Shown: piece after piece, positions 50,212-59,274 of the stretch
Layout: the number at the start of each line of letters is the position of its first letter
Position numbering within the stretch: position 1 is the stretch's first letter
From: a virus
DNA: 64,000 bases
UHGV virus genome: UHGV-0033546
Reading direction: 5' to 3' (one strand)
Made by a program: the position numbers and the translations under genes
The notes under the pieces: generated by a model
What the model saw: only the letters and a program-made list of their open reading frames with translations
Databases searched by the model: none
Told to the model about the DNA's origin: nothing

Positions 50212-50476
50212 TAATATTTTTCCTCTGGTTGGAACACTGCACGACAAGCCCACATACTGGCTTCTTTGAGTTTCGTTTAGCAATAGTTAACTGATCGAGG
50301 CTTTCGGCGTAATTCTTCGCGAATTCATAGTCTTCACAATTATCTAGTGCTTCCCAGAATTCGTCATATAAAGCGGAAAAGATAAGTCCTAAACGAACTT
50401 CAGCGTCTTTGATAGCATTCACTTTACCGATTTTCTCTTCAGTATGTGGTTTATAACCTTTAATATCTTCAATCAT
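50141..50476 (-). CDS. hypothetical protein (boundaries uncertain)
   Basis: 111 aa from ATG 50476 (ATGA with upstream stop); low-complexity C-terminus, so a frameshift is possible. Confidence 0.4.
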
Positions 50477-50690
50477 ATTTGACTTCCTCGCCAGTACCCA
50501 AATCATATTCAACTAAACGAATAGGTTCATGAATGCCATATCCTTGAACAGAAATTTCTGTCGTAGGATAAATTCCATCAATATCACCCATATTCCATGC
50601 CTCATTAAATTGTTGTTCGCCTGAATTACTAAACCATTCAGCGAAAGCATTTAGTACATCTTCAGAACCTTCAATAATTATCTTTGCCAT
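50469..50690 (-). CDS. hypothetical protein
   Basis: 73-aa acidic ORF(-). Confidence 0.45.
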   Translation of the reverse strand: MAKIIIEGSEDVLNAFAEWFSNSGEQQFNEAWNMGDIDGIYPTTEISVQGYGIHEPIRLVEYDLGTGEEVKYD

Positions 50691-51052
50691 TATAAGCTCT
50701 CAGTAAAGGTACGAGCGATAACGTCGCGCTGCTGTTCCGGAGTCAGAGAGTTAAAGCGAACTGCATAACCGGATACACGGATGGTCAGCTGCGGATATTT
50801 TTCCGGATGCTTAACTGCATCTTCCAGAGTTTCACGACGCAGAACGTTAACGTTCAGGTGTTGACCACCTTCAATTTTAACTGTAGGCTGTGACTCAATT
50901 TCAATTTCACGGGCATGCAAACCATAGAAAATTTCTGGGTCTACAAAAGAGTCCTCTTTAAAAGTTTTAGAGACAATAATTCGTGCTTGAATACCATCTT
51001 CAAAATAAATAGTACCTTTATGTGTGCCTTCAAGAATTTGATATGCTTTCAT
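50690..51052 (-). CDS. autonomous glycyl radical cofactor (GrcA/YfiD-like)
   Basis: 120 aa; C-terminal [59 protein letters not shown] with RVSGY glycyl-radical motif. Confidence 0.7.
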
Positions 51053-51058
51053 ATAACC

Positions 51059-51388
51059 TCAATTAGAAAATAAATTTATCCAAGATTGTTCTTTAATTAA
51101 AAATGGCTCAGAATCATATGCCATTAAACTTTGGGTAATTAATCCTTTAAATGGTCCATCAATAAATTCCATTGTAAAATATGGAATTTTATTCATTAAC
51201 CGTGCATTAGGAGCAGTGCACAAAACTCTGCATCCTTTGAATACACCTTTCTGTAATTTATATTGCTTGGGATAAAATTCGCTCAAGACGTTGTTATTTG
51301 CTAAAATTTCAAAATGATTCACCAACTTATTTTTAATAGTTTTTGGCGAAAAATAAAGATATTCAAAAAGCTGCGCATCTGTCATCAT
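51059..51388 (-). CDS. hypothetical protein
   Basis: 109 aa from ATG 51388 (ATGATGA junction). Confidence 0.45.
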   Translation of the reverse strand: MMTDAQLFEYLYFSPKTIKNKLVNHFEILANNNVLSEFYPKQYKLQKGVFKGCRVLCTAPNARLMNKIPYFTMEFIDGPFKGLITQSLMAYDSEPFLIKEQSWINLFSN

Positions 51389-51924
51389 TGCATTCCAATT
51401 ACGAAAAACTGTGGACGAGTAATACCACCAATGCAACATTTACTATTGCAGCAGTAGTGTACAGTGTCCATATGGGCGCTATAAATCTTATCCATATCAG
51501 GAGATTTAACAGGCTCATCAATTATATACAAAATTCGCGAAAGCGATAAACCTATAAACTTGCTTCCTTTATTACCAATAAAACTACGGACAGAATCGGT
51601 AAATAAACGAAAACGTATATCGTCATTAGAATAACGCGAAAATTCCTTTTTGATGTTATCTGCAGAAATTTTAGCGTAAGCTGAAGTATTAGAAAGAACA
51701 ATAACTGTTCCGCCATCATACAGCCAATTAGCAGCAAAGTTAGTCACAGCAGTTGATTTACCGGATTGACGTCCACCATCTAGTCGAAGAGTGCAATACT
51801 GTTTAAGCAAGTCTTCAAATGGCAAGATATAATCGTTTTTACAAATTTCTTCTACTCTAGCATCAGAATGGTGTGTAAAAGCATTCATCAGGGATAGATA
51901 AGGACCAGTCAAAAATGTTCTCAT
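51385..51924 (-). CDS. hypothetical P-loop protein
   Basis: 179 aa from ATG 51924; Walker A-like GGRQSGKST. Confidence 0.5.
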   Translation of the reverse strand: MRTFLTGPYLSLMNAFTHHSDARVEEICKNDYILPFEDLLKQYCTLRLDGGRQSGKSTAVTNFAANWLYDGGTVIVLSNTSAYAKISADNIKKEFSRYSNDDIRFRLFTDSVRSFIGNKGSKFIGLSLSRILYIIDEPVKSPDMDKIYSAHMDTVHYCCNSKCCIGGITRPQFFVIGMQ

Positions 51925-52077
51925 TTTGTTCTCTCTAGATTTGGGCCATTCCATGGCACATGAATTGTCCATTCCTGTATTTACCCATTACCGCGCCCGG
52001 GCTCGACCTTATTACAGGTTGGCGGGAATCCCTCACAGAATCATGAGGTCCAGGTTGTTCCCATGTTATTTACTGTA

Positions 52078-52551
52078 TTATTTAAATGATTTGACGTACT
52101 GAACAGAACCTTTGCTATTCACGAAAGCGATTTTACCATTTTTGTTATACATGGTAGCAGTACGCTGATAGCCATAAGTTTGCTTACCAGATTGATAACC
52201 AACTAATGCAAAATTATCTTCGCCCATTTTATTCTGTTTAGCACGAATACGCTCATGACCGTGAGCCATAAGAACCTTAGCATCGCCAGTTGCAATGGAT
52301 CTACGAGTTTTTTCATCTTCAACTGTATTAACAAAGTCGTCAAATGAATCAAATTTAGCATGAGATTTATTATACAGTTTTCCATCTACTGCATAATTAT
52401 ATCCCTGTACATCCATCTCAACTTCTGTACCATCATCCAATACAGCAGTGATTTTTTGACCTTTTTTAAATTTCAAAAGATCAGTAAAAGATTCAGCAAT
52501 AATTTGAGAATTAATAGCTGCTTCAGTGATAAATTCTTGATATGTTTTCAT
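52078..52551 (-). CDS. internal (capsid-packaged) protein
   Basis: 157 aa; N-terminal capsid-targeting sequence MKTYQEFITEA; ip locus next to denV/e. Confidence 0.6.
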   Translation of the reverse strand: MKTYQEFITEAAINSQIIAESFTDLLKFKKGQKITAVLDDGTEVEMDVQGYNYAVDGKLYNKSHAKFDSFDDFVNTVEDEKTRRSIATGDAKVLMAHGHERIRAKQNKMGEDNFALVGYQSGKQTYGYQRTATMYNKNGKIAFVNSKGSVQYVKSFK

Positions 52552-52560
52552 GTGTTTCCT

Positions 52561-52977
52561 TTAAATGTAAATATTTTTACCGTAATACTTATACCAGTGT
52601 GGTTTCATTAAAATTTTTTCATCGAGTCGTTGTTGACTCAACTTAATAGCTGATTTGCATGGGTTATAATCATTTTTCCATTCTACTGGAATATCGCTGA
52701 TGTCAGGAACTTCAGTATCTTTTATACTGAACCCGCGTTTTAAGCATTCCGTTATAATGTCTGATTGACGCTTTCGCAAAAATTCTAACTTATCGTAAAA
52801 GAACGTAACATGACCAGAACCTAAAATAAACTCGGAAGATATTTTAAAATCTTTAACTCTCTTACCATTTGCCACATGTTTACGAACTATACCAAAAACG
52901 CGTGGCAATTCACGGTATTCTGCAATTAAATGCTGATCAGCAAGTTCAGATACTAAAGTCAAATTAATACGAGTCAT
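52561..52977 (-). CDS. denV: endonuclease V (pyrimidine dimer glycosylase)
   Basis: 138 aa near-identical to recalled T4 endo V. Confidence 0.9.
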
Positions 52978-58252: not shown

Positions 58253-58328
58253 TGGTCGAGGCAGTAGGGATCGAACCTACGACCTAGGACTTAGAAGGTC
58301 CTTGCTCTTCCTTCTGAGCTATGCCCCG
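58253..58328 (-). tRNA. tRNA-Arg (anticodon TCT)
   Basis: manual cloverleaf: acceptor CGGGGCA/TGCCTCG, anticodon loop CTTCTAA, T-loop TTCGATC, CCA encoded. Confidence 0.8.
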
Positions 58329-58332
58329 TAAT

Positions 58333-58408
58333 TGGGGTGACCGATGGGAGTCGAACCCATGACTACGAGAATCACAATCTCGAGTTCTACCAACTGAACT
58401 ACGGCCAC
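58333..58408 (-). tRNA. tRNA-His (anticodon GTG)
   Basis: manual cloverleaf: anticodon loop TTGTGAT, T-arm ATGGG-TTCGACT-CCCAT, discriminator C, CCA encoded. Confidence 0.7.
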
Positions 58409-58522
58409 ATTAATACCTACTCCAACAATCAAGATGTCTTCACACGAAATTAAGAGAAGAATGATCAGTTCAACCCTTATAATCGCGTCAAGTAGATATT
58501 AATGTGACAGTTGTCACAAATT

Positions 58523-58597
58523 TGGCGGACATGCATGGATTCGAACCATGGACCAATTGATTAACAGTCAACTGCTCTACCACTGAGCTACACATCC
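58523..58597 (-). tRNA. tRNA-Asn (anticodon GTT)
   Basis: manual cloverleaf: D-stem GCTC/GAGC, anticodon loop CTGTTAA, T-loop TTCGAAT, CCA encoded. Confidence 0.7.
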
Positions 58598-58601
58598 AAA
58601 T

Positions 58602-58688
58602 TGGTGGGGAGTGATGGAGTCGAACCACCCGAGTCGCAATGACAATGGATTTACAGTCCACACCGCTACCTCTACGGGATAACTCCCC
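58602..58688 (-). tRNA. tRNA-Tyr (anticodon GTA), type II
   Basis: 87 nt; perfect acceptor GGGGAGT/ACTCCCC, anticodon loop CTGTAAA, long variable arm; D-arm pairing imperfect. Confidence 0.6.
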
Positions 58689-58701
58689 CTAATTCATAAT
58701 T

Positions 58702-58776
58702 TGGTGGCCCTGGGTGGAATTGAACCACCATCTGGCGATTATGAGTCGCTTGCTTGAACCTTCCAGCTACAGGGCC
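58702..58776 (-). tRNA. tRNA with anticodon CAT (Ile2-lysidine type or Met)
   Basis: acceptor GGCCCTG/CAGGGCC, anticodon loop CTCATAA, T-arm GGTGG-TTCAATT-CCACC, CCA encoded. Confidence 0.65.
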
Positions 58777-58777
58777 T

Positions 58778-58853
58778 TGGTGCTGATTGACGGAATCGAA
58801 CCGCCGACATCCTCATTACAAGTGAGGTGCTCTACCTACTGAGCTAAATCAGC
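58778..58853 (-). tRNA. tRNA-Thr (anticodon TGT)
   Basis: acceptor GCTGATT/AATCAGC, anticodon loop CTTGTAA, CCA encoded. Confidence 0.8.
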
Positions 58854-58858
58854 AAAAC

Positions 58859-58948
58859 TGGCGGAGGCGATAGGATTTGAACCTATGAGTCGCCGGAGCG
58901 ACTGCCGGTTTTCAAGACCGGTGCATTAAACCACTCTGCCACGCCTCC
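58859..58948 (-). tRNA. tRNA-Ser (anticodon TGA), type II
   Basis: 90 nt; anticodon stem CCGGT/ACCGG, loop CTTGAAA, long variable arm, CCA encoded. Confidence 0.8.
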
Positions 58949-58950
58949 AG

Positions 58951-59024
58951 TCTCCATACAAGGATTTGAACCTTGGACCTCCTGATCCCAAATCAGGCGC
59001 TCTACCAAACTGAGCTACACGGAG
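58951..59024 (-). tRNA. tRNA-Pro (anticodon TGG), CCA not encoded
   Basis: anticodon loop TTTGGGA, T-arm CAAGG-TTCAAAT-CCTTG; 2 nt from tRNA-Ser (dimeric precursor as in T4). Confidence 0.8.
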
Positions 59025-59034
59025 TAAATTAAAT

Positions 59035-59108
<74 letters not shown>

Positions 59109-59113
59109 AAATT

Positions 59114-59200
59114 TGGTGCGAGAAGTGGGACTCGAACCCACAAGGAAATCATTCCGCAGCATTTTAAGTGCTGTGCCTTTACCAATTTGACCATTCTCGC
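59114..59200 (-). tRNA. tRNA-Leu (anticodon TAA), type II
   Basis: 87 nt; anticodon stem CAGCA/TGCTG, loop CTTAAAA, long variable arm, CCA encoded. Confidence 0.8.
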
Positions 59201-59201
59201 G

Positions 59202-59274
59202 CTGGGAATAAAGGACTCGAACCTTTGCATCCTGGAATCAAAATCCAGTGCCTTACCAACTTGGCTAATTCCCA
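59202..59274 (-). tRNA. tRNA-Gln (anticodon TTG), CCA not encoded
   Basis: acceptor TGGGAAT/ATTCCCA, anticodon loop TTTTGAT; 1 nt from tRNA-Leu (dimeric precursor). Confidence 0.8.

Follow-up and report, generated by a model that had tools for sequence, protein, structure and literature searches.

The vs.6 gene of a T4-like phage appears to be a mosaic of phage and host DNA. The gene lies on the minus strand at 50690..51052 of UHGV virus genome UHGV-0033546, a stretch of 64,000 nucleotides (nt) that was analyzed as a whole and is referred to here as the window. On the basis of 98.3% nt identity with T4 vs.6 (119/120 residues in the protein), the window is a Tequatrovirus genome and the gene is the ortholog of T4 vs.6, whose product, Vs.6, has the older protein name Y06I. 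The protein is a homolog of the host GrcA (YfiD), an autonomous glycyl-radical cofactor. The best explanation of the mosaic, to which we assign a probability of roughly 0.85, is that an old and diverged phage grcA had its radical-domain half overwritten, at least twice among phage lineages, through homologous recombination with grcA of the host.

Gene nt 179 to 353 are identical at 175/175 positions to grcA of Escherichia coli SK1144, the commonest E. coli grcA allele. In an even sample of complete E. coli genomes, ~45% have this patch at 100% identity, and the identity is at least 99% in 5,156 of 5,426 genomes. The first 178 nt of the gene have ~33% ungapped identity to grcA, the level of random sequence, and give no DNA alignment. 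Breakpoints fall at gene nt 178/179 and 353/354. The 5' half has a GC content of 33%, the patch one of 48% and the window a mean of 34.5%, while E. coli grcA is uniformly 47 to 49% GC; the patch forms a GC island ~3 standard deviations over the window mean. Identity to the allele of one species, a compositional shift and discrete breakpoints are all found together, as would be expected of host-derived DNA.

By sequence comparison, the patch is specifically E. coli DNA, because nucleotide differences separate E. coli from Citrobacter (90% DNA identity to the patch) and Salmonella (83%) in the same stretch. It derives from grcA; pflB is only ~80% identical. Transfer was probably from host to phage, since the host gene is uniform in GC and its 3' half diverges among species like the rest of the gene, whereas the phage gene is a mosaic. 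When the 64-kb window was compared by megablast with 5,426 E. coli genomes, the patch, accompanied by weaker matches to the pflB paralog, was the sole chromosomal match. A 25-kb query and the 175-nt patch by itself each matched 10,833 chromosomal places, and the remaining 39 kb of the window had no chromosomal match in this megablast search of the 5,426 genomes.

At the protein level, residues 61 to 120 are 100% identical to residues 68 to 127 of E. coli GrcA, and the N-terminal half has 35% identity over 40 residues (pairwise E value, 4e-6). An initial annotation of the window had placed a GrcA-like open reading frame (ORF) at exactly these coordinates, with a host-like C-terminal region of about 60 residues that included the glycyl-radical motif and a divergent N-terminal half, and in these respects it was accurate. 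It had held that similarity at the motif level only, or membership of a conserved and divergent T4 family, would speak against a host origin. Alignment with E. coli GrcA and PflB goes well beyond the motif (175/175 nt to grcA and 76 to 79% protein identity to PflB residues 697 to 759), and the gene is indeed a conserved T4-family member, which proved compatible with its carrying a host patch. The same annotation suggested recent capture or recombination with the host gene. Recombination is supported by the 175/175 nt identity, the jump in GC, the specificity for E. coli and the Klebsiella parallel described below; fresh capture is not, as the gene is a conserved T4-family gene and a full-length grcA homolog.

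T4 carries the same mosaic at the same place, between vs.7 and vs.5. The T4 gene is host identical over nt 179 to 356 (178/178) and the window gene only to nt 353; the two differ by P54 in T4 versus S54 here and by a small number of synonymous changes, most of them within the final 10 nt. The 5' half of the window gene (nt 1 to 178) is 98% identical to that of T4 and 75% identical to those of Klebsiella and Enterobacter phage orthologs.

A probable complete grcA ancestor and a parallel in Klebsiella phages

The family assignment is based on several comparisons. Pfam Gly_radical (PF01228) matches residues 60 to 101 (E value, 2.4e-18; 67.1 bits versus a cutoff of 22.2), and the RVSGYAV motif with the radical glycine is encoded inside the patch. 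The match to phrog_1209 is full length (positions 1 to 120 of 121; E value, 7e-63) and, together with the position between vs.7 and vs.5, places the gene in that orthologous group. The closest solved structure is E. coli YfiD/GrcA (6OWR; E value, 9e-42); next comes pyruvate formate-lyase (PFL), matched in its last 63 residues. The protein has the Gly_radical domain with the RVxGY motif and the N-terminal homology expected of GrcA/YfiD, and its length of 120 residues agrees with a stand-alone protein of ~14 kDa lacking a catalytic barrel; PFL-type matches cover only the last ~55 to 65 residues. Matches to the gene occur in 1,515 phage records, and the gene is conserved throughout the Straboviridae.

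Homology to GrcA extends through the N-terminal half. In a phmmer comparison, phage residues 22 to 120 aligned to YfiD residues 28 to 127 in one piece. AlphaFold2 models of phage Vs.6 and Salmonella GrcA (m0c495cb4a901 and m73e047c74050) gave a confident small beta domain in the N-terminal half of the phage protein (predicted local distance difference test [pLDDT] score of 86 to 89 over residues 1 to 50) and the same order of strands and helix in the Salmonella protein (pLDDT, 80 to 89). A contrast between a folded phage N-terminal half and a disordered host one was considered and rejected, as AlphaFold2 gives the same for Salmonella GrcA. Residues 1 to 60 of YfiD are described in PMC8683613 as disordered in solution by nuclear magnetic resonance (NMR), and the region may fold on binding, or AlphaFold2 may be overconfident. 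In Foldseek searches with the model, the C-terminal half retrieved YfiD and PFL only, and the N-terminal domain gave only nonsignificant KOW-like matches (E values, 0.16 to 0.6). The modeled C-terminal half superposes on the PFL radical domain with a root mean square deviation (rmsd) of 0.8 Å over 43 residues (0.8 to 2.4 Å over 43 to 51 aligned residues). These comparisons suggest that the gene descends from an intact phage grcA rather than from a fusion, and that the event was replacement of an internal segment (gene conversion) rather than capture of a gene fragment, because the N-terminal halves are homologous and the gene occurs in so many phage records.

A second patch is found in phages of Klebsiella. 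Klebsiella phage vB_VIPKPNOM02 is T4-like (~168 kb) with the same local gene order, and the 3' half of its vs.6 is 55% GC. A 44-mer from this 3' half was found in 28 metagenome stretches. In 24 of them there is an entire grcA gene of the host type (MITGIQ...), in several cases on a contig whose length, up to 620 kb, exceeds that of every T4-type phage genome. The single host-type contig checked for species (L098) is 99.3 to 99.5% identical over 11 kb to Klebsiella pneumoniae, compared with 87% for Klebsiella aerogenes and 80% for E. coli. The vB_VIPKPNOM02 gene is identical to the K. pneumoniae allele for 107 nt, and that of a metagenomic phage on a 166-kb contig (L097) is identical for 158 nt (gene nt 181 to 338). 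Both patches share their first codon with the E. coli patch, and this left boundary, just before EGGQHLNV, is common to every phage examined. When K. pneumoniae grcA was compared with the phage collection, 106 phage records matched at 95 to 99% identity over host nt 202 to 369/374; among the matches listed, these were Klebsiella phages, and E. coli phages reached only 86 to 88%. On this sequence evidence, two sister phage lineages carry the grcA allele of their own host species at the same place, as the Klebsiella phages match K. pneumoniae and the E. coli phages match E. coli.

Other genera carry versions of the gene that resemble no host closely. In Karamvirus, Pseudotevenvirus, Slopekvirus, Krischvirus and T5-like phages, the ortholog specifies almost the same domain, yet its DNA is 72 to 84% identical to any of 82 host grcA genes; when the jumbo-phage and Kosakonia-phage versions are added, the range for these diverged versions is 72 to 86%. 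Tequatroviruses with a Salmonella name have the E. coli allele. The Tequatrovirus records H19, H27 and H92/L119, whose names refer to Salmonella, Citrobacter and Yersinia hosts, match the window gene along its entire length at 96.7 to 98.1% identity, and in Yersinia phage ZN18 (L119), for which the patch was compared directly, it is the E. coli allele (3/171 differences) and not that of Yersinia. The patch may record the usual natural host of a phage lineage.

Some loci in the survey differ in kind. A 19-kb IMG/VR sequence labeled viral (L147, UViG_2706794630_000006) has a full-length host-type grcA, 88.8% identical to that of Yersinia over 384 nt, which is probably host DNA or a prophage flank and not a phage gene. 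Two other IMG/VR sequences (L189 and L192) have 855-nt ORFs encoding 284 residues (MERMDHFMDWLAKQ...) that end in a Gly_radical domain but have a different architecture; the Gly_radical part has 83 to 84% DNA identity to enterobacterial grcA 3' halves. Among the GrcA-like proteins P0030, P0094 and P0070 of jumbo phages and that of the T5-like phage Spc35 (L089 220-588), several have the PflB-like residues LTKEQQ[D/N]DVISRTFT in place of the GrcA-like ones; in Spc35, the DVISRTFTQ-M tail is likewise PflB-like, with LTREQQ. These proteins may have arisen separately or been converted from a pflB-type sequence.

Origin of the mosaic

Under the favored explanation, host grcA would have overwritten the radical-domain half, the donor being E. 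coli for the Tequatrovirus and Mosigvirus lineages and K. pneumoniae for T4-like phages of Klebsiella. The 175-bp internal segment replaced would code exactly for the domain that fits host PflB and PflA. A first conversion would need homeologous recombination at ~75 to 80% identity; once installed, 175 bp of perfect host homology would ease further exchange by the T4 recombination system. The boundaries would be the limits of DNA homology between phage and host, the 5' one at the start of the invariant coding stretch and the 3' one at the gene end, and they would be fixed or near terminal because there is nothing to pair with upstream of that stretch or downstream of the stop codon.

The history of the patch differs from that of the 5' half among E. 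coli phages. The window and IMG/VR phage L124, which has a Mosigvirus-type 5' half, differ at 19/177 positions in the 5' half and at 0/171 in the patch (Fisher P value, 2.4e-6), and the L124 patch is the E. coli allele. KAW3E185, a Mosigvirus with a diverged patch, and L124 show 3/177 differences in the 5' half and 6/171 in the patch, the latter all synonymous. Among nine phages, the patch differs from the E. coli allele at 0 to 6 positions, all synonymous, and the phage-type 3' tail differs among T4-like phages. This indicates that the patch history is decoupled from that of the rest of the gene, through repeated conversion or through patch exchange between phages; repeated conversions of different ages and phage-phage spread would look alike in sequence. 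Two further possibilities were examined and rejected: that the KAW3E185 patch is a rarer E. coli allele (best match, 96.6%) and that L123 and L124 have a longer host-like tract, the BLAST start at nt 133 being an effect of BLAST extension only, with the left boundary unchanged.

Several explanations that dispense with repeated recombination were weighed. The C-terminal 60 residues are almost invariant across Enterobacterales hosts and most phage homologs, and the differences within the patch are all synonymous, as would be seen if strong purifying selection on the radical domain and convergent codon choice had produced the likeness with no recombination. Yet in phage orthologs whose C-terminal protein sequence is almost unchanged, only 50 to 55% of codons agree with those of E. 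coli, a rate at which 57 identical codons have a P value of ~1.6e-15. Hosts vary freely at these sites, with 13 synonymous differences between E. coli and Citrobacter in the same 171 nt and 29 differing positions between E. coli and Salmonella. The host-like 48% GC stands inside a 33 to 35% GC genome, and Klebsiella phages match K. pneumoniae codons instead, all of which makes selection with codon convergence highly improbable. An artifact is even harder to credit. Chimeric host reads in a phage contig, or a patch gained during growth on E. coli K-12, would yield exactly host sequence, as seen here, but this in-frame mosaic recurs at ≥80% coverage in 870 phage records, independent T4 sequences among them, and phage DNA flanks the patch on either side. 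Laboratory pickup from K-12 was rejected in particular, as K-12 strain JM109 has C at host nt 240 and the patch has T. A single ancient event, in which a T-even ancestor joined the 3' half of host grcA to a phage N-terminal domain once and passed the fusion on by vertical descent, would account for the identical left boundary in every phage examined and for the conservation of the gene throughout the Straboviridae. It is nevertheless improbable, given that homology to GrcA includes the N-terminal half, which points to a whole grcA as ancestor; that the patches are specific to host species; that no patch position separates E. coli from phages whose 5' halves differ at 19/177; and that other genera keep diverged, AT-richer 3' halves.

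The alternative that comes closest is one recent host-to-phage conversion in E. coli phages, after which the patch spread from phage to phage by coinfection and exchange with the host ceased to be ongoing. T-even phages recombine very frequently in mixed infection, and identical patches on divergent 5' halves (the window and L124) fit such spread, although they fit repeated conversion equally well. A separate host event would still be needed in Klebsiella phages, the 0 to 6 patch differences on near-identical 5' backgrounds (KAW3E185 versus L124) suggest events of different ages, and 175 bp of perfect host homology would be a recombination substrate in every infection. On balance, this alternative is unlikely, though far less so than those above. 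Overwriting of the radical-domain half in at least two lineages may go further, with this half of vs.6 in concerted evolution with host grcA through ongoing recombination between a lytic, DNA-modifying phage and the chromosome; this extension is put forward tentatively, with its odds somewhat short of even.

A number of points weigh against repeated overwriting from the host. T4 degrades host DNA and replaces cytosine in its own, which should limit such recombination. The direction and recurrence of the proposed recombination are deduced from sequence, and identical patches in divergent E. coli phages could reflect phage-phage spread after one host event. Patch conversion is also not universal, and two host-specific patches only were found by these comparisons: Salmonella enterica grcA had no match of >90% identity in the phage collection; a search of 50 of 80 IMG/VR homolog loci against 82 host grcA genes gave only E. 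coli and K. pneumoniae at >90%; and no host-specific patch was seen in the sampled Enterobacter, Cronobacter and Kosakonia phages, with a host panel that lacked some species, e.g., Cronobacter. The protein falls short of the NCBIfam GrcA equivalog model TIGR04365 (154.7 bits versus a cutoff of 170, model positions 25 to 126 only), because its N terminus has diverged. Finally, a role during infection is argued from in vitro work on T4 Y06I, as summarized in PMC8683613.

Two known systems offer comparisons. Cyanophage psbA reportedly undergoes intragenic host-phage recombination that leaves mosaic genes with host-like GC patches, and in both cases a metabolic gene of a lytic T4-like phage would be exchanging internal segments with the host ortholog. 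The vs.6 patch differs in being 100% identical to the allele of one host species, in its fixed left boundary at a protein-domain boundary and in its recurrence with another host species in a sister phage lineage. In T4 marker rescue, ~50 bp of homology is said to be sufficient, and there too short homologous segments are reportedly exchanged with cytosine-containing DNA in the cell. Marker rescue, however, is a laboratory exchange with plasmid-borne T4 fragments, whereas the partner here would be a chromosomal host gene and the exchange is deduced from sequence.

Genomic context

The order vs.8-vs.7-vs.6-vs.5 in the window is the same as in the denV-regB region of the T4 locus map. The gene lies within a codirectional run of small ORFs downstream of denV (52561..52977), and its neighbors match phrog_2049 and phrog_1986, the former being the family that precedes the vs.6 ortholog directly in the annotation of Klebsiella phage vB_VIPKPNOM02. 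A search for promoters and terminators near the gene gave sites at no greater frequency than in shuffled sequence, and an Rfam scan of the window found tRNAs only, none of them overlapping the gene or the spacer 51901-52075.

Features of the vs.6 locus and the anaerobic ribonucleotide reductase genes in the window
Feature	Position	Strand	Basis
vs.6 ortholog, coding sequence, 120 aa	50690..51052	-	ORF listing, T4 nt identity and neighbors, Pfam, PHROGs, PDB 6OWR
Start codon (ATG) of vs.6 ortholog	51052	-	Sequence
Shine-Dalgarno sequence GAGG, 4 nt 5' of the ATG	51057..51060	-	Read from sequence
vs.5 ORF, its ATG overlapped by the TAA stop codon of vs.6	50469..50690	-	ORF listing
Phage-type 5' half, gene nt 1-178, aa 1-59, 33% GC	50875..51052	-	No DNA alignment to E. 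coli grcA
Putative host-derived conversion patch, gene nt 179-353, aa 61-117, 48% GC	50700..50874	-	Identity run with E. coli grcA, 175/175 nt
Phage-type 3' tail, gene nt 354-363, differs from E. coli at three synonymous sites	50690..50699	-	Alignment to grcA
NrdD, 605 aa	30954..32771		Confirmed in the window
NrdG, 156 aa	30487..30957		Confirmed in the window

Other features of the window were recorded alongside. Between denV and the vs.8-like ORF lies a 157-residue ORF (52078..52551, minus strand) that matches phrog_3155, "internal virion protein" (E value, 1e-101); T4 has no gene at this position, and the ORF looks like a variable internal-protein cassette. Directly upstream of the vs.8-like ORF is a GC-rich (0.48) intergenic stretch (51901..52075), which, with the grcA patch and the tRNA cluster, is among nine GC islands flagged in the window. 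The cluster has 11 tRNA genes (58256..59274, minus strand), one of them marginal (58607-58686; 30.2 bits). The 25-kb query with this cluster had 264 matching places on E. coli plasmid records; two plasmid matches listed fall in the tRNA region (84 to 90% identity; tRNA-Tyr/Thr) and are presumably to phage-like plasmids.

Function and significance

The gene, a textbook T4 gene, and its biochemical role are already known. T4 Y06I, like YfiD, is reported to receive a glycyl radical from the PFL-activating enzyme and to complex with oxygen-cleaved PFL and restore its activity (Wagner et al. 2001, BBRC 285:456, as described in PMC8683613). The same source describes residues 61 to 127 of YfiD as the structured part that docks into PFL and residues 1 to 60 as aiding binding and activation (PMC8683613). 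The patch, which covers host residues 68 to 124, corresponds almost exactly to this PFL-docking domain. By analogy with T4 Y06I, the window protein would act as an autonomous glycyl-radical cofactor. Compared with E. coli GrcA (YfiD; NMR structure 6OWR), it is homologous throughout, with an identical C-terminal 60 residues and the same reported role as a PflB spare part activated by PflA, but it is 7 residues shorter, only 35% identical in its N-terminal half and expressed from a phage gene cluster and not under host regulation. Its resemblance to the C-terminal glycyl-radical domain of PflB (residues 697 to 759; PDB 2PFL/1CM5) is to the very piece that the spare part replaces, although the patch itself derives from grcA.

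In the proposed mechanism, oxygen would cleave host PflB at the Gly734 radical, the C-terminal domain of Vs.6 would replace the lost PflB C terminus, and the host activase PflA would put a new radical on Vs.6, whereupon production of acetyl-CoA and formate would resume. The phage may carry its own copy since T4-type infection blocks host gene expression and an infected cell would be unable to make GrcA. In a gut with fluctuating oxygen, PFL-dependent fermentation could then still fuel phage production.

The initial annotation had linked the GrcA-like module to NrdD and NrdG. Both are encoded in the window, as it stated, and NrdD is also a glycyl-radical enzyme cleaved by oxygen, such that Vs.6 might be a spare module for the phage NrdD, activated by NrdG. 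A role in nucleotide metabolism was also suggested, from the Pfam hit alone, by Nolan et al. 2006 (PMC1524935). The functional link was not borne out. BLASTP between Vs.6 and the window NrdD gave a best E value of 3.9, with no detectable similarity to the NrdD C terminus and no alignment of the region of the NrdD radical motif (RRTCGYLG context); the domain is of the PFL type, being 100% identical to GrcA and 76 to 79% to PflB 697 to 759, with its 0.8-Å rmsd to the PFL radical domain; and T4 Y06I is described as activated by the PFL-activating enzyme and complementing cleaved PFL (PMC8683613). A role as an NrdD spare part is very improbable.

No description of the nucleotide-level host identity or of the Klebsiella parallel was found in searchable full text; key older papers lie outside it, and an earlier mention is possible. 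To our knowledge, T-even phages have classically been regarded as having essentially no DNA homology to their hosts. The window fits that view, in 64 kb compared with 5,426 E. coli chromosomes, save for one letter-perfect patch of 175 bp. The pattern suggests that a virulent phage has repeatedly undergone gene conversion by the host chromosome, confined to the domain that docks with PflB and is recognized by PflA. Concerted evolution would, if true, be a natural and measurable case of host-to-virulent-phage conversion; under it, the spare part would always match the PflB and PflA of the local host, and the patch would record the species in which a phage has recently replicated, for example in the "Yersinia," "Salmonella" and "Citrobacter" Tequatroviruses, which have the allele of E. 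coli. Ongoing exchange, if it occurs, would provide a tractable natural system in which to measure host-to-lytic-phage recombination, an auxiliary gene that stays host compatible by copying its target and not by selection on new mutations, and, for T4-like phages used in therapy, an intrinsic marker of the hosts they have recently grown in.

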